Shown here one piece after another: positions 2,505 through 15,276 of a stretch of 15,276 nucleotides of DNA. The notes under the pieces are model-generated. The model ran no database searches and was not told where the DNA came from. It saw only the letters and a list, made by a program, of their open reading frames with translations. The position numbers were made by a program, and so were the translations under genes. Within the stretch, counting starts at the first letter, position 1. The number at the start of each line of letters is the position of its first letter. The stretch comes from a virus (taxonomy: Duplodnaviria > Heunggongvirae > Uroviricota > Caudoviricetes), in the IMG/VR virus record IMGVR_UViG_2609459826_000005, positions 1-15,276 of that record; one strand, 5' to 3'.

Positions 2505-3179
2505 ATGACAGTAGTAGCCATGAAAGAAATTGGCGAGATCGCCATTAGTGACAGCCGGGAAGGTGGTAAGGACTACTTACTGCGGCCTTCCTTCTCAGCG
2601 ATGATGAAGGTTGGTGAACCGGATGAGATCGTGAAGATGTACGCACTAATTCACGGTAGCGAGGTGCAGCAATTGATAGCCTCTTGTACTGCTGGCTTCG
2701 ACTCAATTCCTGAATGGATGGCTCCATCCTTCAATGTTGCAGCTGACAATCTGCTATTCACGTCAATGCTGGTATTGCAGGCCTGCTGTGATGATGATCT
2801 CGATGAGATAATTGGCGAGTGGGCTGATGAAGGCGGCAGAATCTCCTATCAGCCCGGCATGATGGCAAAAGATTTAATCATCATTTTCGCCCGCGAGCTG
2901 ATGCAGCACGGCATCGTAGGTAAAGCCAGTGTGCGACGCCTGCAGCGGCATGAGTCAGGCGAAACGACGAACGAGTTTAAGGCCTTCGACTACATCAGCG
3001 CGGCGCGTAGCCACTTCGGCATGAGCCGGGAAGAGGCTGCGGCGCTGACCATGACCGAGTTTCAGCTGATGCTGGCGCAGAAATACCCTGATCAGAAGGG
3101 TTTCACGCGGGATGAGTACGACGCGGTTGCGGATGACTTCCTGGCGAAACAGGCTGCGAGAAGGGCTAAGCAGAAGTAG
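2505..3179 (+). CDS. putative tail assembly chaperone (position-based)
   Basis: 224 aa acidic protein in the slot between major tail and tape measure genes, where gpG/GT-type chaperones are encoded. No slippery frameshift site recognised; the call is synteny-based only. Confidence 0.4.
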   Translation: MTVVAMKEIGEIAISDSREGGKDYLLRPSFSAMMKVGEPDEIVKMYALIHGSEVQQLIASCTAGFDSIPEWMAPSFNVAADNLLFTSMLVLQACCDDDLDEIIGEWADEGGRISYQPGMMAKDLIIIFARELMQHGIVGKASVRRLQRHESGETTNEFKAFDYISAARSHFGMSREEAAALTMTEFQLMLAQKYPDQKGFTRDEYDAVADDFLAKQAARRAKQK

Positions 3180-3195
3180 CCCACCCAAATAATCA

Positions 3196-3223
3196 AGCCT
3201 CGGCATTGTCCGGGGCTTTTTTG
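3196..3223 (+). terminator. rho-independent terminator after the chaperone gene
   Basis: AGCCTCGG / CCGGGGCT 8 bp stem (one G-U wobble) with CATTGT loop followed by TTTTTTGT, 17 nt after stop at 3179. Confidence 0.6.
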
Positions 3224-3261
3224 TACCCGCAGTAAATCAACCGCGCTTCACACGCGCATTG

Positions 3262-3267
3262 TATAAT
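3262..3267 (+). promoter_or_regulatory. consensus -10 hexamer TATAAT upstream of the KilA-N gene (candidate moron promoter)
   Basis: Exact TATAAT at 3262-3267 immediately preceded by TG, located between a terminator and the KilA-N start. No good -35 found at 17 bp spacing. Confidence 0.35.
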
Positions 3268-3341
3268 CCTAGAGCCTACAGTAAGCGAGCCTGAGAGTTG
3301 CCGTTATAGGTGGCGACCTCTCTAGGAGGCGGCTTCTCTGT

Positions 3342-3905
3342 GTGACAGGCTCTGCTTTCTATAGGCAAATCGCAATGAAATATCCAACCGTATCAGTAAG
3401 CGGCGTTTCCGTTCGCGTTGATGACGAAGGGCGCTATAACCTTAATGATCTTCATGCAGCCGCAGTGGCAAACGGAGAGGCAACAGAACAGCAGCGCCCA
3501 AGTCAGTTTTTGCGTAGTGCTCAAGTTAAGCGCTTCATAAAAGCACTAAAAGCCAAAGTGCAAAAAAGCACTCTGGAACAAATTCAACCACTTAATGTTA
3601 TTAAAGGTGGGGATGAACCAGGCGTTTGGGGTGTTGAACTGTTGGCGATCCGTTATGCCGCATGGATTAAGCCGGAATTTGAGATTGAAGTATATGAGGT
3701 GTTCCGAACGGTGGTTCGCCTCGGCATTAGTGCCATGTCTCGCCTGAACAAAATCGACCACATCATCAACACCGAATCGAAAGAGATCAGCAAGTGCGCC
3801 AGCCAGATGGCCCGGTGGGGTGTCGGTGGTCGTAAGCAGCTATTGCACGCAGCAAGAGATCGCGTCGCCGATGAAGTTCAGATGTACCTGCCAGGCATCG
3901 CGTGA
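3342..3905 (+). CDS. KilA-N domain protein
   Basis: GTG start 3342 with AGGAGG at 3325-3330 (alternative ATG at 3375). N-terminal region contains the hallmark KilA-N pattern (VSVRVDDEGRYNLNDLHAAA...RPSQFLR...IKGG...GVWGVELLAIRYAAWIKPEFEIEV). Confidence 0.8.
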   Translation: MTGSAFYRQIAMKYPTVSVSGVSVRVDDEGRYNLNDLHAAAVANGEATEQQRPSQFLRSAQVKRFIKALKAKVQKSTLEQIQPLNVIKGGDEPGVWGVELLAIRYAAWIKPEFEIEVYEVFRTVVRLGISAMSRLNKIDHIINTESKEISKCASQMARWGVGGRKQLLHAARDRVADEVQMYLPGIA

Positions 3906-3912
3906 AGGTGGC

Positions 3913-3935
3913 AAGGCCCACTCAGGTGGGCTTTA
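3913..3935 (+). terminator. hairpin terminator after KilA-N gene (weak T tract)
   Basis: AGGCCCAC-TCAG-GTGGGCTT hairpin (GCCCAC/GTGGGC perfect stem) followed by TTTAG; 8 nt after stop at 3905. Confidence 0.45.
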
Positions 3936-3960
3936 GATCTCTTATCTCGGGGAGAGGGCG

Positions 3961-4155
3961 GTGAAACCTAAGCAAACATTAACCATTAACAATTTGATAC
4001 CATTCCCAAGCGAAGCGCCTAGAGAAGAGACCATAGAGTGTAATGATGTTTTTCTTGATAATTCAATGCTAGAGGAAAAAATTTCTACTCGAATAGGTTT
4101 TAGTAGATTGATTTTTGTTAATGAAATCAACTCGATCAATTCCATCTCGGAGTGA
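3961..4155 (+). CDS. small hypothetical protein (64 aa) in AT-rich moron segment
   Basis: GTG start with GGGGAGAGGG just upstream; ends 37 nt before the peptidase gene. A 73 aa ORF on the opposite strand (3942-4163) covers the same DNA, so strand and reality are uncertain. Confidence 0.3.
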   Translation: MKPKQTLTINNLIPFPSEAPREETIECNDVFLDNSMLEEKISTRIGFSRLIFVNEINSINSISE

Positions 4156-4192
4156 ATTATCATATGCGCATACCTTTCAATAGGATGCGAAA

Positions 4193-4771
4193 ATGATTAA
4201 CGAATATGATTTCGTGACAGCGGCAGGTCATATAGCTAAACATGAAGCCGGTCACTGGCTTGCGGCGTTTAAATTAGGCTGGAACCCAAGAGGTATAGGC
4301 TTGAGAGTGCCGCCTCATGCTAAAGATCACATGGGTTATTCAGAAACAAGTCACAAAGTCGATTTAAGCAGCATTGAGGATGTCCGGGATTACGCAAGAG
4401 GCAGGGTAAAAATTCTCTACAGTGGCGTATATGCAGAGCACTTTGACGGAAAAGACTTTGATCACGAATCCATAATGCGTGATATGAAGCGTGGCGGCGG
4501 TGCTTATTCTGATTTCTGGAAAGCTGAAGAAATCTACTTCTTTTACTACAACTGCCTCGACACAAAGGGAGAGTGGGATGAAGAGTTTCAGCCTGTTATT
4601 TGCGACGTTCAGCTCATGATCGAAATGCATTATGACTTCATCACCTTGGTAGCCAAATTTGTTATGGCGAGGGCAAATTTTGTCGGTCAACGCATAGAGA
4701 TTTCATCCACCGACCTGATCAGGCTGTTCGAAAATAGCGCCATTAATCTACCGGATCACGACCCTGCCTAA
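4193..4771 (+). CDS. standalone FtsH-like (peptidase M41-type) zinc metallopeptidase domain protein
   Basis: 192 aa; HEAGH at residues 17-21 (AGHIAKHEAGHWLAAFKLGWNPRGIGLRV), followed by a PRG motif and LYSG...AE / GGGAYSD segments. This parallels the FtsH protease domain (HEAGHA...IIPRGRALG...LYGGRLAEE...GASND) as recalled from E. coli FtsH. No AAA+ ATPase or transmembrane part. AGGA 7 nt upstream of ATG. Confidence 0.65.
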   Translation: MINEYDFVTAAGHIAKHEAGHWLAAFKLGWNPRGIGLRVPPHAKDHMGYSETSHKVDLSSIEDVRDYARGRVKILYSGVYAEHFDGKDFDHESIMRDMKRGGGAYSDFWKAEEIYFFYYNCLDTKGEWDEEFQPVICDVQLMIEMHYDFITLVAKFVMARANFVGQRIEISSTDLIRLFENSAINLPDHDPA

Positions 4772-4883
4772 CTGCGGGTTTTTCCGGCGCTAGCCTCTTG
4801 AGATCAATAAATCAGCGTTTGCCGTTGCGCCTGTGCTATTCCTGGGTAGGATGTTTCCACTTTTACCAATGGGGAATAGGGAT

Positions 4884-5270
4884 ATGAAGCGTTTACTGAT
4901 CATGGCTATTGCTGGGCTATCACTAACCGGCTGCGGCAAACCTGCACCGACAAGAGATGAGGCCTTTCAAATGGCTAAGCAGGAAATGTCGATGGCTCTT
5001 TGTGGCGATAGGAGTGCAAGCTGTTTTATTGCTGAAGGAGGAAGCTCTAAAGTATCAGAGAAGAAAAATGACAATACCTATAACGCCTCAGCTACATTTA
5101 ACAGCCTAAAAGGGAAGGGCAAGGATTTGGAATATAGCGGCGGGGGCGTTTTTTTCGAAATAGATGACGAAACAAGGGCTGTATATGTCAAATCCATCTC
5201 AGCATGGTCTGAGGATGGAAAAAAGAGCATTGAGCTTTGTGGTTCGAACTATAAATTCTGTACTAAATGA
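4884..5270 (+). CDS. small lipoprotein (128 aa), candidate superinfection-exclusion moron
   Basis: Likely start ATG 4884 (in-frame upstream GTG/ATG at 4833/4851/4869 lack a signal peptide). N-terminus MKRLLIMAIAGLSLTGC has a basic n-region, hydrophobic core and lipobox L-T-G-C. Followed by a strong terminator. Confidence 0.7.
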   Translation: MKRLLIMAIAGLSLTGCGKPAPTRDEAFQMAKQEMSMALCGDRSASCFIAEGGSSKVSEKKNDNTYNASATFNSLKGKGKDLEYSGGGVFFEIDDETRAVYVKSISAWSEDGKKSIELCGSNYKFCTK

Positions 5271-5286
5271 AGCCCTAATAAACAGC

Positions 5287-5309
5287 AACCCGCCGAGGCG
5301 GGTTTTTTT
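5287..5309 (+). terminator. rho-independent terminator (CCCGC-CGAG-GCGGG + T7) abutting the tape measure gene
   Basis: 5 bp GC stem 5289-5293/5298-5302, tetraloop, seven T at 5303-5309. Confidence 0.7.
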
Positions 5310-5324
5310 ATGCCCGGAGAGAAC

Positions 5325-7727
5325 ATGGCCAGCGAGGAGCAGGTAGGTAATATTGTCTATCAGGTGCAGATGGATGTTGCCAATCTTATTGAGGCGCAGC
5401 GTAAAGTAAACGAACGCCTTGAGAAGATGAATAGTGGAGTATCAAAAGCTGCCAGCAAGTTTGATGAGCTTCAGACCAGTATAAGCAGAGTAGCTGGCGC
5501 GATCGCTGCTTCAATTGTCGTTGAATGGGGGAAGGCATTTCTTGTAGCCGCTGACAATATGAGCCAACTTAACGCTCGAATTGAAAGGCTAACTGGTAGT
5601 GCTTCTGTCGCATCTCAGACCATGCAAAGTCTGATGAATATAAGCTCAACAACAGGAGGATCTCTCCAGGATACAGCCAAGCTGTGGGAAACGTTAAGCA
5701 CTGCGTTGCGGAGCACTGGTGCCACTAATGGCCAAATATTGCAGCTTACCGATACCCTTCAAAAAATTGGTCGAATTGGAGGCACATCTGCCGAGGAAAT
5801 GGCTAATGCGCTGCGCCAATTCGGACAGTCTATTTCATCCGGCGTTGTTAGAGCAGAAGAATTTAACTCTATTCTTGAGCAAATGCCTGAGTTGGCAAGG
5901 CAGATGGCGGCAGGGCTTGGAATTGGTATTGGTGAATTGCGTCAGTTGATGCTGGATGGGAAACTTTCTGCTCAAGATGCACTCAATGCAATTCAGAAGC
6001 AAACCAGCATCGTGAATGCAGAGTTCGCAAAATTGCCCCGCACCTTATCTCAGGCCAATGCTGCTCTTACCAATTCGTTTCTGTCAATGGTTGACTCAAT
6101 TAACCAGACTACAGGCGCGAGCAGAACCATGGTGGCTGTAATTGACTCCATCACCACAGCCATAGACAGGCTGACTGGGAAAACAGCTTCAGCAGCAGCT
6201 CAAATTTCCGATCTCAATAGCACAGCAGAGATGTTCGAGCGAAGGGCGAGGACATGGTCTTGGCTGGGCCTGGATGGTTGGGAGGCTCAAAGCAAGGCGC
6301 TTGCAGGGCTAAGCAACAAAGCTGCAGCTCTCGTTGGGGATATTTCTGCCGTGACCCAAGCCTCTCAAGAGGCCTCTAACACAAAGCCAATAAACATTAA
6401 AACGACCGGAGACGATGCGGCTACATCGAAGCTGATAAAAAACTCAGAGCGCCGCTTAGCGCTCGCCAAGCTGGAAGGTGAAGCCAGAGCCAGACTGCAG
6501 GCCCAATATGATGCAGCAGACGCTGGCATCACCGATCAGAAACGCATCAAAGCTCTTCAGGATGAATACGCAGAAACCTATCGGGTTACTGAGGCGCGGA
6601 AAGAGAGCAACAAAGAGGGCAAGACCTCCGCCTCGCAGGCTGAATCCATTGCTCAGAAACTGGCGAGCCTCAAACAGCAATCCGAACTCGCTGCAGATTC
6701 GACCAGTGAGTTGAGTCGAGAGCAGGCCATGCTAAGGGCCGAGCAATCCCTCGGCAGCGCCGCCACCCAGTCCCAGATTAAAGAGGCAAGGGAATACGCA
6801 GCCAGGACGTGGGACGTTGCTAATGCCCTGAAAATGCGTCAGCAGGCGGAGCAGGCCTCCCGGTTTATAAATCAGGAAGTGTCAGCTGCGAAGGTTCAAC
6901 GCGATCCTTACACAGGTGAAGCGCAGGACCCAGCCGCGCAGGTCAACGAGGAAGAGCAGCGTAAACTCGAGGCCCTGGCTAAATACCAGGAACTGGGCGT
7001 AATCAACGCGCAGCAGTTCGAAGACGGAAAGACGGCCATCGCAAGGCAGGCATCGAACGATCGCATCAGTATTGCCCAGCAGGAGGCTAAGCGTCAGGTT
7101 GACGTGATGAACATGCTGCTTGGCGGGATCGGTGATGGTTTCTCAGGCCTGGCTGAAATCGTGTCTAAAAGCGCTGGCGAAAGCAATGCCGCTTACAAGA
7201 CACTGTTCGCTATCAGTAAAGCCTTTGCGGTTGCTCAGTCCACTCTGAACCTTCAGCTTGCACTCTCAAACGCCATGGCCTCGGGTCCATTCCCCTGGAA
7301 CATGGCAGCAATGGCGCAGGTTGCTGCAGCTGGCGGCCAGGTGATCTCATCTATCGGCGCAATGTCATATGGTGGCGGGCGCGAACACGGCGGCCCGGTA
7401 TCTGCCAGCTCCATGTACCGTGTGGGCGAGGGCGGTAAACCTGAGATTTTCAAAGCCAGCAATGGCAGCCAGTACATGATCCCCGGCGATAACGGTCGCG
7501 TCATCAGTAACCGGGATATTGGCGGGGGTGGCGGGGCGTTCAATTACAGCCCGGTCATTCAGGTCAACGGTGATCCGACAGAGCAGACGCTTGCCATGCT
7601 TGAAGCGGCGGTTAAGCGCGGTGCGCAGCAAGGCTATGCCATGGCCGTCAGCGATGTCGCCAGCGGCAAAGGTAAGCTTTCCAACGCGCTGACCAACAAC
7701 TTCAACACCAGTCAACGCCTCACATAA
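5325..7727 (+). CDS. tail tape measure protein
   Basis: Long ORF (800 aa from ATG 5325; in-frame ATG also at 5310 but it abuts the terminator T-run, whereas CCCGGAG at 5313-5319 is a well-spaced RBS for 5325). Ala/Gln/Glu-rich coiled-coil-like middle, Gly-rich C-terminus, and position between chaperone and minor tail genes. Confidence 0.9.
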   Translation: MASEEQVGNIVYQVQMDVANLIEAQRKVNERLEKMNSGVSKAASKFDELQTSISRVAGAIAASIVVEWGKAFLVAADNMSQLNARIERLTGSASVASQTMQSLMNISSTTGGSLQDTAKLWETLSTALRSTGATNGQILQLTDTLQKIGRIGGTSAEEMANALRQFGQSISSGVVRAEEFNSILEQMPELARQMAAGLGIGIGELRQLMLDGKLSAQDALNAIQKQTSIVNAEFAKLPRTLSQANAALTNSFLSMVDSINQTTGASRTMVAVIDSITTAIDRLTGKTASAAAQISDLNSTAEMFERRARTWSWLGLDGWEAQSKALAGLSNKAAALVGDISAVTQASQEASNTKPINIKTTGDDAATSKLIKNSERRLALAKLEGEARARLQAQYDAADAGITDQKRIKALQDEYAETYRVTEARKESNKEGKTSASQAESIAQKLASLKQQSELAADSTSELSREQAMLRAEQSLGSAATQSQIKEAREYAARTWDVANALKMRQQAEQASRFINQEVSAAKVQRDPYTGEAQDPAAQVNEEEQRKLEALAKYQELGVINAQQFEDGKTAIARQASNDRISIAQQEAKRQVDVMNMLLGGIGDGFSGLAEIVSKSAGESNAAYKTLFAISKAFAVAQSTLNLQLALSNAMASGPFPWNMAAMAQVAAAGGQVISSIGAMSYGGGREHGGPVSASSMYRVGEGGKPEIFKASNGSQYMIPGDNGRVISNRDIGGGGGAFNYSPVIQVNGDPTEQTLAMLEAAVKRGAQQGYAMAVSDVASGKGKLSNALTNNFNTSQRLT

Positions 7728-7736
7728 GGAGTTCCC

Positions 7737-8207
7737 ATGGGGATCAGCAGCACCATTGATTTCCCGCACCAGTACCTACCAATGCCCCAGCGTTCCGGGC
7801 ATGGATTCACTCCCGTAAGCCCCCTCCAGCGTTCCATCATGACATCCGGCCGCACGCGCCAGCGTCGCAAATACACCTCGGTTCCGACTGAGGCGGGGGT
7901 TTCGTGGGTGTTTAATGATGCACAGGCGCAGCTGTTTGAGGTGTGGTTCAGGGATGTGATCACTGATGGCGCAGCGTGGTTCAACATGCGCATGCGCACG
8001 CCAATGGGCGTTGGTGACTACGTCTGCCGGTTCAAGGATATCTACGACGGGCCGGTGCTGTTCGGGTTAGGGTTCTGGAAATTCACGGCAACTCTGGAAC
8101 TGTGGGAACGTCCTATTCTGCCGCCTGGCTGGGGTAATTTCCCTGAGTTCATCGTGGGGCAGAGCATTATCGATTACGCGCTCAACAAGGAGTGGCCTGA
8201 AGCATGA
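7737..8207 (+). CDS. minor tail protein (distal tail/tip assembly)
   Basis: 156 aa; AAGGAG at 7725-7730; first gene after tape measure; stop overlaps next start. Confidence 0.6.
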   Translation: MGISSTIDFPHQYLPMPQRSGHGFTPVSPLQRSIMTSGRTRQRRKYTSVPTEAGVSWVFNDAQAQLFEVWFRDVITDGAAWFNMRMRTPMGVGDYVCRFKDIYDGPVLFGLGFWKFTATLELWERPILPPGWGNFPEFIVGQSIIDYALNKEWPEA

Positions 8208-8692
8208 CCAGTCCAACCCTGAACAGGCTTTACGCCAGCGGCGGCAGCGAGGCGCTACTGAATACGTTGCAGATTACCGTCGGTGGGCAGGATTACTGGC
8301 TGGTCGAGAACTTCGAAGATATCACCGCTGTTACAGAGGCGGGGGCGACAGTGACATTCCAGGCAGCTGCAATGGCCGTCGCGCTGCCAGCCAGGAACAA
8401 AGACGGTACGCAGGATCTGCAGTTCGCCATCAGCAACATTGACGGCATCGTTTCCACTGCGATACGCAACGCCCTGGCTAACCTGAACAACGGCGCGCTG
8501 GTAATGCGGCAGTACATATCGACCGACCTTAGCTACCCGGCGGCACCACCTATCGTTCTGCAGATTAAGGACGGGTACTGGAAGGCCACAGAGGTGCAAA
8601 TTACTGCCGGATTCCTGAATATCCTGAAAACCGCGTGGCCGCGATACCGATACACGCTTCCTGTGTTCCCGGGACTCCGCTACCTACAGTAG
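8204..8692 (+). CDS. minor tail protein
   Basis: 162 aa; ATG overlaps upstream stop (ATGA); AAGGAG 9 nt upstream; syntenic with lambda L-position genes though not recognisably lambda L. Confidence 0.6.
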   Translation: MTSPTLNRLYASGGSEALLNTLQITVGGQDYWLVENFEDITAVTEAGATVTFQAAAMAVALPARNKDGTQDLQFAISNIDGIVSTAIRNALANLNNGALVMRQYISTDLSYPAAPPIVLQIKDGYWKATEVQITAGFLNILKTAWPRYRYTLPVFPGLRYLQ

Positions 8693-8701
8693 GAAATCAC
8701 C

Positions 8702-9082
8702 ATGTTCAATCCAGATAAATACCGTTCTGTCGAGTGGCAGAAGGGCGGGCGCGCTTACCCCGCGCTTGACTGCTTTGGCATCGTCAACGAAATCAGGCGC
8801 GATCTGGGTCTGGATCCGTGGCCGGATTTCGCCGGAGTCACGAAGGATGATAACGGCCTAGATCGGGAAGCGCGCGGGCTGATTGCTGGCCTGACTCGAT
8901 GTGAACCGACCCCGGGCGCAGGTATCGCCTGTTATTCCGGCTCTGTTGTTACACACGTTGCCATCGTTGTCGAGATTGACGGCCAACTGCGCGCTGCGGA
9001 GTGCAATCCCCGCACTAACGTAACCTTTCTGCCGCTGGCGCGGTTTGCGCGCCGCTTTGTTCGCGTGGAGTATTACCAGTGA
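8702..9082 (+). CDS. NlpC/P60-family tail protein (gpK-like)
   Basis: 126 aa with putative catalytic Cys in ALDCFGIV and downstream His in VVTHVAIVVE, the Cys-His arrangement of NlpC/P60 peptidases; position equivalent to lambda K. Confidence 0.65.
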   Translation: MFNPDKYRSVEWQKGGRAYPALDCFGIVNEIRRDLGLDPWPDFAGVTKDDNGLDREARGLIAGLTRCEPTPGAGIACYSGSVVTHVAIVVEIDGQLRAAECNPRTNVTFLPLARFARRFVRVEYYQ

Positions 9083-12000
9083 CGATCCGTATCTATCCCT
9101 CCCGGTTGCCGGGCGAACCGTTGGAAACGCATCAACATGAAACGATGACCCTTAGCGCCTGGTTTGCGCAGAACGTGAAGGACTGGACGCCGGATCAGCA
9201 GCATCCGGTTGCGGTTGAAATCGACGGTGTCCCCGTCCCGCCGGCAGAGTGGACACTGCGCGTTATCAAGCGAGAAACAGACGTCAGGTTGTATCCGGTG
9301 CCATACGGTACCGGCGCAGAAATCGCTATCTGGGTTGCCGTCAGCGTAGCTGTCGCCTCTGCTGCGTACAGCATCTACATGATGAGTACAATGTCACAGG
9401 CGGGTGGCGGCGGTGCCCAGGCGGCCAGCGGAGACCAGATTGACCTCAACCCGGCCAAAGCGAACGCTGCGAAACTTGGTGATCCCATCCGGGAAATCTT
9501 CGGCAAATATCGGGTCTGGCCTGATTACGTTGTGCAGCCGGTAAGCCGGTTCGTCAACGAGACCAGCATGGAAACCAGCATGTTCCTGTGCGTGGGCGTC
9601 GGTGACATGGTGATTAACCAGTCCGATATCCGGATTGGCAATACGCCGATCTCCGCTTTCGGTACCGACGTGCGTTACACCATCTACCCACCTGGCACTA
9701 ATGTATCCGGCGACACGCGTACCGAAAACTGGTTCAACTCACCAGAGGTCGGGAATACCGGTTCCGGTACCGCCGGGCTGGACCTTGGCTCAAGCGGTCC
9801 GGAGACGGTCAGTATTATCGCTGACGCTCTGGTAGTGTCCGGAAACTCCATCACGCTCGTTGACGTATCGGCGTCAGGCGGCGATGAGGAGATCCCGCCG
9901 TCGTGGACTGTAGGAACGGTGATCACCGTGCTGGCGCCAAACTCTTATACGGTGGTGTCATCCGGCGGTTACAGCGTCATTTATGGCGGGATAGAGGAAC
10001 TTGCACCTTATGTCGGCATGCCGGTGACGCTGAACTATAACGGCAACGACTACGACCTGGTGATCGCCAGCTATGCCCCGGGCGTTCCGGCGGTACCCGG
10101 GGTTGGCGGCAGTGCCGCGACCTTAACCGCCAGCGCCGCGCCGACGACTTATGATTTCAGTACCGCACCTGTGACGTTCAGCATCAGCTGGCAGGGTACG
10201 ACCTACCCGGTCTCGCTGGTTACCAATTACGTCACCATGTCGGGTCTGGTTTCCTCGATCACCTCGCAGCTCTCAGGCTCCGGTCTGATTGCCAGAGATA
10301 ACAGTGGGCGTCTCGAAATCGGTGAGGCCAGCAGCCCGTTCGCTGGCGGTTCCATAACCAACAGCCCTTTACCCGCTGCTGTGTTCGGCGATGCGCCAGT
10401 CAATAAGGCGGGCGTGAAATCAACGGGCGGCACGGCGGAAGTCAGGGCGCACATTACCCTGGCTTACAACAGCGCCACCGGCACGCCGTTTACCGGGTTA
10501 CCGGAAGGCATTCAGCGGTTCTCGCTGGGGTTGGCTGGCAATCAGTTCCGGATCACCGATGTGGACAGCCAGACGGTCACGATTGAGCGGTTAACTGTGA
10601 CAACAGGCTCTGGCGGTGAAACCATCACGACGCCGGATCCATCGTGGCCTGGCTTCACTGAGCGCATGCTGCTGGATGCGACTGTAACGGGTGTCAGTGA
10701 CGATTATGAGTGGGTCGGCCCGTTCCTGGCCTGCCCGGACGGGGAAACGCTGGACGCATTCGAGGTGAACATCAACTTCCAGAGCGGCCTGGTGCGTTAT
10801 ACCGACCAGGGGAATAAACGCTCCATGCCGGTACGCCTGGTGATCCAGTATCGCAAGGTCGGCACCACCGCCTGGCAGCAGCAGTCTCCGTTCTATTCAC
10901 GCAGCACTGAAAACCAGATCGGGTTTACGCATCGCTACAGTGTGTCGCCGGGCCAATATGAGATCCGGATGCGCCGCACTGAACCGGTTAAGGGGGGCAG
11001 TACCCGCGACCAGGTATTCTGGCAGGCGCTGCGCTCACGACTCAGCAAGCGCCCCACGAAGTACAATGGTGTCACCACCATGGCGCTGACCGTGCGCACA
11101 GGGAATCGCCTGGCGGCCATGTCCGATCGCCGGATAAGCGTCACGCCAACCCGGATTTACAGTGGCGGCAGAACGGCGCGGAGCATTAGCGGGGCGCTTT
11201 ACCACGTCCTAGGGTCGCTGGGGTTCACGGCCAGTCAGATAGATACGGCGGCAATTGACGCGCTGGAACAAACCTACTGGACGCCACGCGGTGAGAAGTT
11301 CGACTGGGCGAGCGGGGAGAGCAAGTCAGCGCTTGAGGTATTGCAGAAAATCACCAACGCAGGGATGGGGTATTTTCTGCTGTCTGATGGGCTGGCGTCT
11401 GCCGGCAGGGAAGGCATTAAACCCTGGGTAGGCATGATCACCCCTCAGGAAACCACCGAGGAGCTGCAGACCGCGTTTAAAGCCCCGTCACAGGACGATT
11501 ACGACGGTGTGGACGTGACGTATATCAACGGCACCACCTGGGCAGAGGAGACCGTGCAGTGTCGCCTGCCTGGCAATCCTACGCCGTTGAAAATCGAGAG
11601 CTATACGCTGGATGGTGTTCTGGATGAGGACCGGGCCTACCGCATCGGCATGCGCCGGTTGCTGGGCTACCAGCTGCAGCGCCTGCAGCACACCACCTAC
11701 ACCGAGATGGATGCGCTCTGCTATGAGTTCATGGATCGCATAGTGCTGGCCGATGACATCCCGGGCAGCCAGACTCTTAGTTGCCTGATTACCGATATGA
11801 CGTATGACAGCAGCAAAATTACCATGACGCTAAGTGAGCCGCCGGACTGGTCGTTCCAGAACCCGCGCGTGATTATCCGCCATCAGGATGGCAGGGCATC
11901 AGCCATGGTGGTGCCGACACGCATTGACGACTTCACCATCTCGGTGCCGTACAGCGCCGCGCTGGAGCCCGAACTGTGGGCAATGAACGACGCGTACATT

Positions 12001-12165
12001 GAGCCGCCGCGACTGCTGTTCTGCTCGTCTGTGCGGGTGCCGTATGACGCCCTGGTAGGCGAAATATCACCGGGAAACGACGGTATCAGTCAGGTAACAG
12101 CAATTCAGTATCACCCCGGAAAATATGCCTACGATGACGCCACTTACCCCGGCGACGTTACTTAA
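9079..12165 (+). CDS. central tail fibre / tail tip protein with gpI-like N-terminal domain and gpJ-like core
   Basis: 1028 aa; GTG start overlaps upstream stop (GTGA). N-terminal ~200 aa resembles lambda gpI organisation (short soluble domain, hydrophobic stretch IAIWVAVSVAVASAAYSIYMM, then a PAKANAAKLG...IFGKYRV segment). Further in, QYEIRMRRTEPVKGGSTRDQVFWQALRS matches the lambda J NIRMRR...TLW motif as recalled. Confidence 0.75.
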   Translation: MTIRIYPSRLPGEPLETHQHETMTLSAWFAQNVKDWTPDQQHPVAVEIDGVPVPPAEWTLRVIKRETDVRLYPVPYGTGAEIAIWVAVSVAVASAAYSIYMMSTMSQAGGGGAQAASGDQIDLNPAKANAAKLGDPIREIFGKYRVWPDYVVQPVSRFVNETSMETSMFLCVGVGDMVINQSDIRIGNTPISAFGTDVRYTIYPPGTNVSGDTRTENWFNSPEVGNTGSGTAGLDLGSSGPETVSIIADALVVSGNSITLVDVSASGGDEEIPPSWTVGTVITVLAPNSYTVVSSGGYSVIYGGIEELAPYVGMPVTLNYNGNDYDLVIASYAPGVPAVPGVGGSAATLTASAAPTTYDFSTAPVTFSISWQGTTYPVSLVTNYVTMSGLVSSITSQLSGSGLIARDNSGRLEIGEASSPFAGGSITNSPLPAAVFGDAPVNKAGVKSTGGTAEVRAHITLAYNSATGTPFTGLPEGIQRFSLGLAGNQFRITDVDSQTVTIERLTVTTGSGGETITTPDPSWPGFTERMLLDATVTGVSDDYEWVGPFLACPDGETLDAFEVNINFQSGLVRYTDQGNKRSMPVRLVIQYRKVGTTAWQQQSPFYSRSTENQIGFTHRYSVSPGQYEIRMRRTEPVKGGSTRDQVFWQALRSRLSKRPTKYNGVTTMALTVRTGNRLAAMSDRRISVTPTRIYSGGRTARSISGALYHVLGSLGFTASQIDTAAIDALEQTYWTPRGEKFDWASGESKSALEVLQKITNAGMGYFLLSDGLASAGREGIKPWVGMITPQETTEELQTAFKAPSQDDYDGVDVTYINGTTWAEETVQCRLPGNPTPLKIESYTLDGVLDEDRAYRIGMRRLLGYQLQRLQHTTYTEMDALCYEFMDRIVLADDIPGSQTLSCLITDMTYDSSKITMTLSEPPDWSFQNPRVIIRHQDGRASAMVVPTRIDDFTISVPYSAALEPELWAMNDAYIEPPRLLFCSSVRVPYDALVGEISPGNDGISQVTAIQYHPGKYAYDDATYPGDVT

Positions 12166-12184: not shown

Positions 12185-12206
12185 GACCCGCTTCGGCGGG
12201 TTTTTT
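12185..12206 (+). terminator. rho-independent terminator (CCCGC-TTCG-GCGGG + T6) abutting the fibre gene
   Basis: 5 bp GC stem 12187-12191/12196-12200, tetraloop, six T at 12201-12206. Confidence 0.7.
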
Positions 12207-12221
12207 ATGCCCGGAGCGAGC

Positions 12222-13889
12222 ATGACCACATACCGCACGAATAATCCATTTGGGTCAATGGATCCGAAAGACCTTTTCGATAACTCCCAGAATCTTGACT
12301 ATGCCCTAAACGATATAACAAAATCCTTGTGGACAGACCGCTTAGGAAGAGTAAGGAAAAGTTATTGGGGAATGGAGCAGGCTTTTTCTGCTCAACTTAT
12401 CAGCCAGCAGCAAAGATTTAATTATTTCATTCAGAATTCAGGGTATAAAGTAATTGGTGAATATACCCAAGGTCCTCTGACTGTTACTGATTATAATCAA
12501 CTGATTCGCTATCAGAGTGAATTTTATAAATTAAATTCTTCTACTTCCATTCCATTTACCACTACGGGCAATGACTCCACGTCATGGTCAAACGATTCTT
12601 CACATTTTGTCAGTGTAGGGGATGCGGCCATTCGCCAAGAATTATCTGGTGCTGGCGGCTCAGGTTTGATTGGAGATTTACTCAAGCCTATCACGTGGGA
12701 TGGGTTTTCTGGAGGAGCGGCCTGGGACGGTGTAACCAATGATAATATTCCCTACCAGGCGGCAGCTCAATATGGTCGAAAATTTTTAATGCCATATGGC
12801 GTTGGAAATATAACAGAGTATTCAGTAGGTCTTTTTGCGCCGAATTTCTCTGTTCTTGGTGAGGCAGAGCAATTAGGCTCATTGCAATATCCTGTTGATG
12901 ATTTCCGTCCATCAAGGACGGATACAAAATACTCAAAGTATCACGAAACGGATCCAGCATCTAATCGATGGGATTCCTGTTCTATACATACAATTGTTAA
13001 ATGTCCTCAGGACGGTGCTAATCCAAAAGGAAATGCGGCAGCTGTAACTGGATATGCCAGGGCTATCAATAGCGAGGGTGGTGATCATGTTGGCGTACAT
13101 GGTAGAGCAGAAGGTGATACCAGTTACGACTTCGGTACTGGGATGGGGTTGTGGGGTGGATGGCTGTCAGCCGTTTACAGACCTAATACAGGCTCAGCTG
13201 GGAAGCCAATAAAGTCTATTATTGGTTGTGAGATTGACGTGCAAAATGATGGGCCACACGCACAAAACCCCAATCCGGATGGTGTTGGTGAGCTGCGTGG
13301 TCTCGCGGTAGGGAATACTGGCACCGGCCATCTTAATCAAGGCGTTGATGTATTCGCTAACAATAGCGGTGCGCGTGGAAGGTGGTGGATGGGCGTTCAC
13401 GTACGTGCTAATTCCATTGTAGGAAGACATCTGGTATCAACAGAGGGGGAAGTTGGTAATGCAATGGTGATTGCTGGAGCGGCATCGTCAGGGACGCGTT
13501 ACGGCGGATTAAAATTTAGTAAATATCCCTACACAGCGGTAGGACAAGGAGGTCATCTTTCTTATGGAATTGATTTCAGGGAGGCAACAATTCGCTTACA
13601 AAACGCGATTGTAATGGGGCCTCAGCACCGGATTACATGGGAGCCTGACACTGCAAAGGGTGTTGCGGTAGAGACAGAGGGAGGGGATGTAATTACTTTC
13701 CGGGGATATAACATAGCCATAAATAACTCCAAAGTTTTGGGGACTAGGCAAACTGGTATTTTTAATATGTCGGGGACGGCAGATGGAACCTCATACAATA
13801 CAGAAACCGTCACACTTGTAAATCTTGCCAGATACCTCAAGAAAGTAACTGATGCATTAATATTTCATGGCCTTATTGGCCCAACTTGA
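12222..13889 (+). CDS. tail fibre / tailspike protein (putative receptor-binding protein, possible depolymerase)
   Basis: 555 aa from ATG 12222 (in-frame ATG at 12207 abuts the terminator; CCCGGAG RBS serves 12222). Last large gene of the tail cluster; visibly lower GC than neighbours; Gly/Asn/Thr-rich C-terminal half suggestive of a beta-rich binding or enzymatic domain. Confidence 0.65.
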   Translation: MTTYRTNNPFGSMDPKDLFDNSQNLDYALNDITKSLWTDRLGRVRKSYWGMEQAFSAQLISQQQRFNYFIQNSGYKVIGEYTQGPLTVTDYNQLIRYQSEFYKLNSSTSIPFTTTGNDSTSWSNDSSHFVSVGDAAIRQELSGAGGSGLIGDLLKPITWDGFSGGAAWDGVTNDNIPYQAAAQYGRKFLMPYGVGNITEYSVGLFAPNFSVLGEAEQLGSLQYPVDDFRPSRTDTKYSKYHETDPASNRWDSCSIHTIVKCPQDGANPKGNAAAVTGYARAINSEGGDHVGVHGRAEGDTSYDFGTGMGLWGGWLSAVYRPNTGSAGKPIKSIIGCEIDVQNDGPHAQNPNPDGVGELRGLAVGNTGTGHLNQGVDVFANNSGARGRWWMGVHVRANSIVGRHLVSTEGEVGNAMVIAGAASSGTRYGGLKFSKYPYTAVGQGGHLSYGIDFREATIRLQNAIVMGPQHRITWEPDTAKGVAVETEGGDVITFRGYNIAINNSKVLGTRQTGIFNMSGTADGTSYNTETVTLVNLARYLKKVTDALIFHGLIGPT

Positions 13890-13915
13890 TTTAATAAATA
13901 TTCTGAGGATAATAA

Positions 13916-14083
13916 ATGGACAGCCAAGTAGTACAAAATATCATGCAATTTATGCTGCGTGTTAATCTTTCCGGACAGGAGGTCCCGGCGTTTAATGTTG
14001 CAATGAATGCATTGCAGGAAGAGTTGATCAAAAGTGAAAAAAACCATGAAAGGGAGGTTGAATAATGGCTTTGAAAACAAATG
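13916..14083 (+). CDS. small hypothetical protein (55 aa)
   Basis: ATG 13916 with GAGGA 6 nt upstream, in an AT-rich stretch right after the fibre gene; overlaps the next ORF by 19 nt. Below the 60 aa cut-off of the supplied ORF track; found by manual translation. Confidence 0.3.
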
Positions 14084-14310
14084 ATGCCGGTTCAGGGTTA
14101 TATATACGCGTCGAGTTACCACGCGTACATGGCAAATACCGTGCGCAGTTTGACCTTGTTCAATATGTTAACCACCCTGTCACAGGAGATAAGGCGGAAG
14201 TGGGTCGTGAAACAATGGAGTGTGATTACGATCTGAATGGAGCTAATGTAATTGAGCAATGCTACTTTTACGCCAAGGCCAAGGTGCCTTTTGGAGTTTT
14301 AGATTGCTAG
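14065..14310 (+). CDS. hypothetical protein (81 aa)
   Basis: ATG 14065 preceded by strong RBS AAGGGAGG at 14048-14056; no recognisable motif. Confidence 0.45.
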   Translation: MALKTNDAGSGLYIRVELPRVHGKYRAQFDLVQYVNHPVTGDKAEVGRETMECDYDLNGANVIEQCYFYAKAKVPFGVLDC

Positions 14311-14342
14311 GCTCTCGCGCAGATCTCTCTCCGATTGCACAT

Positions 14343-14609
14343 GCCATGGCTGCAGTAGCTGTGCAGTTATTACTTGCAATTACGTCTGGAAATTGGTGTT
14401 GTGGCGGTGTGCTGGGATGTTTATGGTTCATATCCAGAGAGCACACCCAAGCTGAATATCGCTGGATTGCTCAGTTCGGCGAAGGCAAGCGCGCCAACAT
14501 GCCTTGGTGGGGCGGGTTCGACTGGCGAGTGTGGAATCTGCCCAGCCTTCTCGACTGGCTGATTCCGGTGCTGGCCTGTAGTGTCGTTTATTTTGTCTCC
14601 ACCATCTGA
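14343..14609 (+). CDS. small two-helix membrane protein (88 aa), Trp-rich loop
   Basis: Start chosen at ATG 14343 because the listed start at 14259 lies inside the preceding ORF. Hydrophobic segments AAVAVQLLLAITSGNWCCGGVLGCLWFI and LLDWLIPVLACSVVYFVSTI flank a loop containing NMPWWGGFDWRVW. Confidence 0.45.
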   Translation, partial: AMAAVAVQLLLAITSGNWCCGGVLGCLWFISREHTQAEYRWIAQFGEGKRANMPWWGGFDWRVWNLPSLLDWLIPVLACSVVYFVSTI

Positions 14610-14665
14610 CTTCTGTAATCGGCATTGATAGGCGTCGCCTCATTGATCTGCACCCCTTTCAAAAC

Positions 14666-14685: not shown

Positions 14686-14701
14686 TAAAGGAGTGCAGAT
14701 C

Positions 14702-14941
14702 GTGCCCCGCAAATCAGACATTCACAGCGCATTTGTCGCTGCAATACAGCTAAATCCTAAGGGATACCAGTGTTTACGCACGGACGACTTTATTCGAGAA
14801 CTTGCCAAGGTGCACTGGCATTTCAGTCAGGAAGATGCCAATGACTGGATAGAGCGCTACCAGGAGTTCTTCGTCGATAAGACGCCTGATAACAGCCAGA
14901 ACAGGTTGTGGATCCTGCGCAACATGGGGAGGGTGCTCTGA
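14702..14941 (+). CDS. hypothetical protein (79 aa), first gene of a putative LexA-regulated operon
   Basis: GTG 14702 lies 9 nt after AAGGAG (the listed start at 14693 has zero spacing to the RBS). Stop TGA overlaps the ATG of the next gene (TGATG). No recognised motif. Confidence 0.5.
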   Translation: MPRKSDIHSAFVAAIQLNPKGYQCLRTDDFIRELAKVHWHFSQEDANDWIERYQEFFVDKTPDNSQNRLWILRNMGRVL

Positions 14942-15276
14942 TGGGGTTTCCTTCACCGGCGGGCGACTACGTAGAGCAGCGGTTAACACCGGAGCGTATC
15001 TGCGGGATCGGCATGGACAGCCGCATCCTCGAAACATCATCCGGCTTTGCCGTTATCGAGCCGTGCACCAGGCTGGTACAGAATCAGGTTCTGCTGATTT
15101 TGTCTGGCGGCCGGACTCAGTTTGCCCGGGTAATGGGTAGGGCGCTGATTTGTGATGATGGCGAAGCGATCGAAGGTGATGCAGCTGAAGAGGCTGAGGT
15201 TATGAGGCGGGTGACGCACTTTATCAACAGCACTGATGCTGCGATATCTCTTGAGGCGGCATTGGCGCAGTTTTGA
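14941..15276 (+). CDS. UmuD-like (LexA/S24 superfamily-related) protein, divergent
   Basis: 111 aa starting MGFPSPAGDYVEQRL, matching the N-terminal arm motif of UmuD/MucA (GFPSPAADYVEQRIDL / GFPSPAQGYEKQEL as recalled). The canonical GDSM serine and the catalytic lysine context are not evident. Stop codon is the last three bases of the window. Confidence 0.5.
   Translation: MGFPSPAGDYVEQRLTPERICGIGMDSRILETSSGFAVIEPCTRLVQNQVLLILSGGRTQFARVMGRALICDDGEAIEGDAAEEAEVMRRVTHFINSTDAAISLEAALAQF

Follow-up and report, generated by a model that had tools for sequence, protein, structure and literature searches.

Within a window of 15,276 nucleotides (nt), the whole stretch of DNA analysed here (a Caudoviricetes virus, IMG/VR record IMGVR_UViG_2609459826_000005), we were interested in a gene on the plus strand at 12222-13889, which lies directly downstream of a TipJ/J-like gene and encodes a spike protein of 555 amino acids (aa). 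A preliminary description of the sequence had regarded it as a tail fibre or tailspike with a swapped receptor-binding module. The reading frame is open from 12207 or 12222 to 13889, and 12222 was confirmed as its start by GGAG five nt upstream of the ATG and by the homologues, most of which begin with MTTY. No Pfam, NCBIfam or PDB sequence matched the whole protein, and PHROG tail-fibre families matched aa 1-150 only. Comparison of about 270 collected relatives split the protein into an N-terminal part (aa 1 to ~150), a middle part (~165-495) and a C-terminal part (~495-555). The assignment as a tail fibre or tailspike was upheld by the PHROG matches, by the homology of its N-terminus to the tailspike gp13 of the Shigella siphophage Sf11, and by the position of the gene after those for a tape measure protein (TMP), a distal tail protein (DTP)-like protein, a DUF1833 protein, a CHAP-like protein and TipJ.

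Modules of the spike protein

A profile built from 17 N-terminal sequences (A4) matched Sf11 gp13 (9occ_G) with an E-value of 8.7e-32, aa 1-146 being aligned to residues 1-135. Cryo-electron microscopy of Sf11 revealed that residues 4-59 of gp13 are alpha-helical, that three of these segments bundle with one helix of the DTP gp17, and that six gp13 trimers, each hinged near residue 162, surround the tail tip (PMC12724387). The corresponding segment of the spike, aa 1-68 (12222-12425, plus strand), aligns with gp13 residues 1 to ~59 and is a predicted helical docking segment; modelling of the full-length protein by AlphaFold2 (AF2; alignment of 32 sequences) gave helices at 15-36 and 48-73, at a low predicted local distance difference test score (pLDDT) of 41-53. 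Overall pLDDT of this model was 50, and only the domain of aa 69-133 was confident (pLDDT 76-84). This small beta domain (12426-12620, plus strand) is of the PF18668 (TSP1/Gp66 N-terminal) type, as profile A4 also matched CBA120 TSP1, TSP3, TSP4 and related spikes (4oj5, 5w6f, 5w6h, 9lna, 9vvr) over aa 70-150 with E-values of 1e-7 to 1e-9. A PF18668 match at the Pfam gathering score was obtained for 4 of the 17 anchor relatives and not for the query, and judged by its sequence the domain is a related but divergent member of this family. The anchor was 43-48% identical to the N-termini of receptor-binding proteins (RBPs) of Klebsiella phages of 42-49 kb, which we take to be KP36-type siphophages. 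RBPs of the KP36 type are built from an anchor of ~140-190 aa and a variable enzymatic central domain (PMC6872550). The N-terminal anchor of ~60 aa proposed earlier thus held as the docking element, equivalent to the Sf11 gp13 helices, but not as the conserved module, which spans ~145 aa.

The anchor is followed by the neck motif VSVGDAAIRQELSGAGGSGLIGDL at aa 129-150 (12606-12671, plus strand). In alignment A1 this motif (SVGDAAIRQEL..GGSGLIG) recurred in proteins that were unrelated to each other in either the N-terminal or the C-terminal part. About 100 of the ~270 collected proteins had only the anchor in common with the spike (60-80% identity), their C-termini being an S74 chaperone, pectate-lyase-3, SGNH esterase, SASA (sialate O-acetylesterase) or GH55-like and unrelated to that of the spike; a C-terminal Peptidase_S74 domain (PF13884), present in most anchor-sharing proteins, was absent in the query. 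Proteins P0003 and P0004 were 88-95% identical to it over the body, but carried a PF18668-type N-terminus, and yet other N-termini were present in P0005 and P0006 (both with 77% identity in the body) and in P0007 (61%). Among 84 body relatives we observed N-termini of the PF18668 (10), PF09008 P22 head-binding (3), collagen, T7 tail-fibre, P2 tail-collar and lambda-type fibre kinds. When the DNA was compared to a prophage of E. coli GN25, identity was ~90% for TipJ, the spacer and ~100 nt at the start of the spike gene, ~70% over 12318-12640, undetectable over 12650-14627 and 80% from 14628 onwards; similarity to the sister prophage L001 stopped at ~12641-12650. These data place the joint for module swapping at the neck (aa ~129-150), and the receptor-binding module as a swapped one, as suggested in the preliminary description, is borne out by the anchor-only relatives, the body-only relatives and the DNA breakpoint against the GN25 prophage.

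The C-terminal aa 495-555 (13704-13889, plus strand) form a tip homologous to that of the tail needle gp26 of P22 and HK620. Through the last ~60-70 aa (VLGTRQTG...ALIFHGLIGPT), profile A3 matched 5bu8, 5bu5, 4lin, 2poh and 3c9i with E-values of 4e-9 to 9e-7, and the tip was modelled by AF2 with pLDDT 88-96 and matched gp26 in Foldseek with a probability of ~1. Matches to gp26 were confined to the last ~70 profile positions, leaving the N-terminal gp10-binding tip and the long trimeric coiled coil of gp26 unmatched. This tip alone was shared with the spike by 56 of the collected proteins.

The body family and its companion genes

The body between neck and tip (aa 151-494; 12672-13703, plus strand) belongs to an unannotated family without a match in Pfam, NCBIfam or PDB sequences. 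Exhaustive HMMER searching with aa 145-555 against 1.84 billion representative proteins led to 168 clusters with E<1e-3, of which 63 had E<1e-10, and a word-indexed search found ten only. W314 and E337 are invariant in the family, and at least 84% of its members retain P230, K236, D251, H293 and R295. The literature on Phapecoctavirus spikes and on enterobacterial common antigen (ECA) held no assignment for the body family. Intact spike genes of 517 and 478 aa, which join a P22 head-binding N-terminus to a body of this family, were observed in P22-like prophages of E. coli EC31 (L005, 3585-5138) and 19KM1803 (L010, 3563-4999); RefSeq/PGAP annotates them only as an 'incomplete' head-binding pseudogene of ~120 aa, with ~1.1 kb unannotated.

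The first ~55 aa of the body carry a GGAxxDGVTNDxxxxQAA...P.G signature as in pectate-lyase-3 and GH55 helices, and profile searching gave matches to 5m5z (E 4.5e-7) and 7chu (E 0.014), with an hhalign probability of 71% over 53 aa; after these ~55 aa the likeness to known helices ends. AF2 modelling of aa 145-555 (84 sequences) resulted in pLDDT 74 and a predicted template modelling score (pTM) of 0.61. The model was reliable in aa 155-195 and ~385-555, whereas its quality was poor in aa 235-315, and pLDDT was below 50 in the middle of the body. Almost no strands were assigned to this model by DSSP, also in the confident aa 394-480. Foldseek of the body model against PDB returned gp26 only, and a search of BFVD gave a 'pectate lyase superfamily protein' (E 9e-4, TM-score 0.30). 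No hidden Markov model (HMM) of the pectin-lyase-like family (PF12708 and relatives) matched the query, nor was there a significant fold match to this family over the body. The beta-helical binding or depolymerase domain suggested before is reflected in the pectate-lyase-3-like start, but not in a family HMM, and the fold scores were below significance. On these results a body of beta-helical type, built from one chain or from intertwined chains, is plausible. With regard to composition, the C-terminal half had been described as rich in Gly, Asn and Thr, which was correct for Gly (16.5%, compared to 9.4% in the N-terminal half and 8.6% in other open reading frames, ORFs), but not for Asn (6.5% in each half, 4.0% elsewhere) or Thr (7.9%, no enrichment).

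Two small genes follow the spike gene, ORF-A (49 aa; 13916-14065, plus strand) and ORF-B (81 aa; 14065-14310, plus strand). Homologues of ORF-A with 51-81% identity were found immediately 3' of the homologous spike gene in L003, L004, L005, L006/7, L008, L009 and L010, and homologues of ORF-B with 43-73% identity behind the spike gene in L003, L005, L006/7, L008, L009, L010, L016/17 and L018/19. The backbones comprise a sipho-prophage of Enterobacter roggenkampii (L009), E217-like myovirus contigs (L006/7), a T7-like podovirus contig (L008), the P22-like E. coli prophages (L005, L010) and, for ORF-A only, Phapecoctavirus tuntematon (L004). Both genes were also detected behind fibres that have only the gp26-like tip in common with the spike, for example a P2-like fibre, where they take the place of the assembly gene. 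ORF-B (~80 aa) has three conserved Cys, and none of its 32 database clusters bears a name. Neither ORF-A nor ORF-B matched a family of Pfam, PHROG or NCBIfam, including the Caudo_TAP/Tfa assembly proteins, at a meaningful E-value, and in a dedicated search ORF-A/B were found in only 7 of 5,426 complete E. coli genomes. From their position and linkage the two products may be assembly factors or distal subunits tied to the tip. They are better conserved than the body (70-81% identity where the spike body has 30-42%), which fits a role acting on the conserved tip.

With respect to the function of the body, it is a serious possibility, if somewhat short of an even chance, that it is a right-handed pectin-lyase-like beta-helix depolymerase cleaving O-antigen or capsule. 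The pectate-lyase-3/GH55 motif at its start with the profile matches given above, four family members that reach PF12708, the BFVD match, the invariant E337 together with the conserved D251, H293 and R295, and rung-like repeats such as NAIVMG..RITW, seen by eye, would all agree with such an enzyme. However, the helix likeness is limited to ~55 aa, the query itself has no Pfam match, every fold score stayed under the usual significance limits, D367 of the family is lost in this clade, and the near absence of DSSP strands in the confident aa 394-480 would be unusual for a single-chain beta-helix. High pLDDT without intramolecular strands, as in this stretch, is what a single chain taken from an intertwined trimer should show, and we regard as slightly less probable than a depolymerase that the body is a trimeric fibre of intertwined chains (a triple-stranded beta-helix or a prism) that lacks enzymatic activity and serves for binding only, with ORF-A and ORF-B as separate assembly chaperones. 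Aa 394-480 are continuous with the gp26-like tip, whose homologous stretch in P22 includes the triple beta-helix. In addition, the Gly content of the C-terminal half, the small conserved ORFs located in the P2-like operon where a fibre assembly gene belongs, and the occurrence of family members in phages isolated on rough K-12 are in line with a fibre of this kind. An intertwined fold would nevertheless leave catalysis possible, as HylP1 and K5 lyase are enzymes, and ORF-A and ORF-B have no similarity to known Tfa-type chaperones.

A still more tentative proposal, which we consider rather unlikely as a whole, is that body, tip, ORF-A and ORF-B would constitute one undescribed three-gene receptor-binding cassette, moving intact among siphovirus, myovirus (Phapecoctavirus, E217-like, P2-like) and podovirus (P22-like, T7-like) backbones, with ORF-A and ORF-B as a new class of assembly factors, or as adhesin subunits at the distal end, that would have the conserved tip as their target. 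In this proposal the body may also have a fold absent from PDB.

Leader and base composition

TipJ and the spike gene are separated by a spacer of 56 nt, in which a terminator scan detected a terminator-like hairpin (GACCCGC-TTCG-GCGGGTT) with a T-run at 12185-12207 (dG -12.2 kcal/mol). It is part of a conserved leader at 12185-12221 (plus strand), consisting of the hairpin, the T-run and then ATGCCCGGAGCGAGC, which carries the Shine-Dalgarno sequence GGAG. The leader up to the ATG was conserved before every anchor-bearing gene examined and near-identical in L001, L009, L011 and L016. In a prophage of E. coli CUPF06 (L002), the same leader precedes a second fibre gene located after an acyltransferase gene rather than TipJ, and therefore the leader travels with the spike gene. 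The exchange cassette said to precede the gene could be traced to this leader as the sole element found that fits. The CUPF06 locus (2830-7972) comprises tandem spike genes, the first GH28-related with another N-terminus and the second, behind the acyltransferase gene, with leader and anchor of the type in the window, which points to a tail with two kinds of spike or to an alternative cassette kept in reserve.

The spike gene has a GC content of 0.450 and a GC content at third codon positions (GC3) of 0.358, compared to 0.592 and 0.709 for TipJ; composition is thus not uniform, and the gene is markedly AT-richer than the J-like gene, as had been described. Amino-acid content does not explain this contrast because it resides at third codon positions. 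In sister prophages, too, the fibre genes have a lower GC content than TipJ (0.47 and 0.71 in L001, 0.40-0.53 and 0.60 in L002). Low GC is therefore a property of the whole fibre gene pool, an AT-richer pool within which these genes seem to be passed around. The sharp fall of GC3 from 0.71 to 0.36 at the J/spike boundary might also be read as recent transfer of the receptor-binding module alone from a low-GC donor, with the GC step as the swap joint. This is improbable, as the conserved anchor (aa 1-150, GC3 0.367) is as AT-rich as the remainder (aa 151-555, 0.355), the sister fibre genes show the same tendency, and a two-segment likelihood fit placed the change-point at ~12062 (2ΔLL = 93), ~100 nt before the TipJ stop and within this gene, but the homology breakpoint is at ~12650. 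The GC step was consequently rejected as the swap joint, being contradicted by the codon-position profile with its low GC over the whole gene including the anchor.

Tail gene order, proposed function and comparison with known systems

All genes of the siphovirus-type tail run upstream are on the plus strand and start with those for the tail terminator (1254-1637), an Ig-like tail tube protein (1701-2444) and a DUF6246 protein (2505-3179). Downstream of a gap described below, the TMP gene (5310-7727) is followed directly by an ORF of 156 aa (7737-8207; phrog_384 'virion structural protein') as candidate DTP gene, a DUF1833 ORF of 162 aa (8204-8692), a CHAP/NlpC-like ORF of 126 aa (8702-9082) and the TipJ-family host-specificity/baseplate-hub gene of 1028 aa (9079-12165; NF040662 with E 3e-120, PF24801, phrog_469). 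Tail core GC is ~0.58-0.60, and its nearest phage relatives are Klebsiella and Pseudomonas phages. Siphophages of Klebsiella and Pseudomonas likewise carry homologues of the 156-aa ORF, in parallel with the spike N-terminus. The only PDB match of this ORF was the Sf11 DTP gp17, over residues 5-85 with a sub-threshold E-value of 0.19, not covering the adaptor helix at ~129-152. The order TMP, 156 aa, 162 aa, 126 aa, TipJ and spike mirrors gp18, gp17, gp16, gp14 and gp13 of Sf11 (PMC12724387). By analogy with Sf11, the 156-aa ORF probably encodes the docking partner of the spike.

Prophages with a matching layout of TipJ, spike gene and downstream region were detected in at least five assemblies of E. 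coli (97% nt identity), where they adjoin yciB-yciC-ompW and the trp operon. Contig L003 encodes a 99%-identical spike protein (P0001), and its flank was 100% E. coli. Related prophage tails were present in 9-19 of the 5,426 complete E. coli genomes, and the spike body in none of them (0 of 5,426). Megablast of the spike region against the phage collection gave no match, and scanning of GTDB species-representative genomes with alignment A5 found no relative.

Some further observations concern the window and its relatives. A second low-GC patch (3342-5270; GC3 0.42-0.48) separates the DUF6246 gene from the TMP gene, contains a gene for a KilA-N domain protein (3342-3905) and two ORFs without Pfam match (4193-4771 and 4833-5270), and looks like a moron insertion within the tail operon. 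L003 has a deletion equivalent to 8075-11656 of the window (L003 8611-9305 joined to 9302 onward), by which the DUF1833 ORF, the CHAP-like ORF and most of TipJ are lost; either this prophage copy is defective or the contig is mis-assembled. The next ORF after the companion genes, 14259-14609, encodes a hydrophobic protein of ~100 aa (phrog_1443, function unknown), and a piece of ~140 nt at 14439-14579 with ~75% identity is probably behind most of the matches in 1,889 of the 5,426 complete E. coli genomes, which include K-12-derived and B strains. A pair of small genes (14693-14941 and 14908-15276), the second coding for a UmuD-like N-terminal fragment of ~105 aa (phrog_3469, FPSPAGDY motif), marks the prophage end here by yciB and in P22-like prophages by intS; at the equivalent site of the Enterobacter relative L016 a full S24 peptidase and a UmuC-like polymerase are encoded.

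We hold it to be quite likely that the gene encodes the exchangeable protein for host recognition in a siphovirus-type prophage of E. coli inserted by yciB. This modular side tailspike or fibre, presumably a trimer, is composed of docking helices, a PF18668-like domain with neck, a host-range body and a gp26-like cap. Judged from the homology to Sf11 gp13, aa ~1-68 of a spike trimer would contribute three helices to a bundle with one helix of the DTP, and this docking would hang several spikes around the tail tip. The PF18668-like domain (aa ~69-133) would lead to the neck as the recombination joint common to many spike families, the body (aa ~150-495) may bind and possibly cleave a cell-surface polysaccharide and thereby set the host range, and the gp26-like cap (aa ~495-555) would close the distal end of the trimer. 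Body, tip, ORF-A and ORF-B act together as a mobile cassette, with siphovirus, myovirus and podovirus backbones among its carriers. Homology for exchange could be provided on the left by the conserved 3' end of TipJ, the hairpin leader and the anchor, and on the right by the two small conserved end genes. Several points weigh against this interpretation. The link of the 156-aa ORF to the Sf11 DTP rests on E = 0.19, and the Sf11 contact residue K19 is F19 in this spike. The hairpin before the spike gene resembles a terminator, and therefore expression of the spike with the late operon presumes antitermination. D367, present in 86% of the body family, is Gly in this clade, which weakens the case for catalysis. 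The possibility that a non-structural cargo or lysogenic-conversion gene has merely been placed after the tail genes could draw on the hairpin, on the location near the prophage end among small unknown ORFs and on glycosyltransferase and acyltransferase genes as neighbours in sister prophages, but it is very remote given that the N-terminus is strongly homologous to a tailspike resolved in the virion, and given the presence of the body in tail gene clusters of virulent myoviruses and of a T7-like podovirus contig.

The class of spikes is well known, and the modest novelty is the uncharacterised body family, the needle-like tip and the linked small genes. Modular spikes determine which strains can be infected and their parts are swapped in phage engineering; the locus gives clean boundaries of anchor, neck and body for one E. 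coli prophage lineage and ties the anchor to the structure-resolved docking mode of Sf11. It also points to a body family that has been overlooked by annotation pipelines or called a pseudogene in P22-like E. coli prophages, and that is accompanied by the two small, unstudied genes. If ORF-A and ORF-B were indeed required assembly factors, both genes would be needed to express or transplant such receptor-binding modules.

Among known systems, the 'tail spike protein' of Phapecoctavirus tuntematon and nieznany (YP_009986516) and the P22-like E. coli spikes (L005, L010) share the body family with 30-35% identity over aa 127-555 or 219-555, the tip and the downstream ORF-A (and ORF-B), but they have other attachment modules (that of a myovirus or the P22 head-binding domain) and none has been characterised. 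The needle gp26 of P22 and HK620 (2POH, 3C9I, 5BU5, 5BU8) has the homologous C-terminal tip (VLGxRxTG...HGLI), equivalent to the last ~60-70 aa of the spike; gp26 is an axial plug, whereas the protein described here would be a lateral spike and has neither a gp10-binding N-terminus nor a long coiled coil. KP36-type (Webervirus) Klebsiella RBPs resemble it in the order of anchor and variable central domain (PMC6872550) and in the 43-48% identical anchor, but as a rule they have an intramolecular S74 chaperone at the C-terminus, and their activity as capsule depolymerases is proven; neither applies to this protein. Compared to Sf11 gp13 (9OCC), the body is different, being an Sf6/P22-like endorhamnosidase beta-helix in Sf11 and here a member of an unrelated, unannotated family with a gp26-like tip, and the Sf11 DTP of 457 aa has a large extension, while the marginally similar candidate here has 156 aa. 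Nevertheless, both spikes share a homologous N-terminal part of ~140 aa, are encoded after a TipJ-like hub gene and proceed from N-terminal helices through a neck or hinge to the receptor-binding body.

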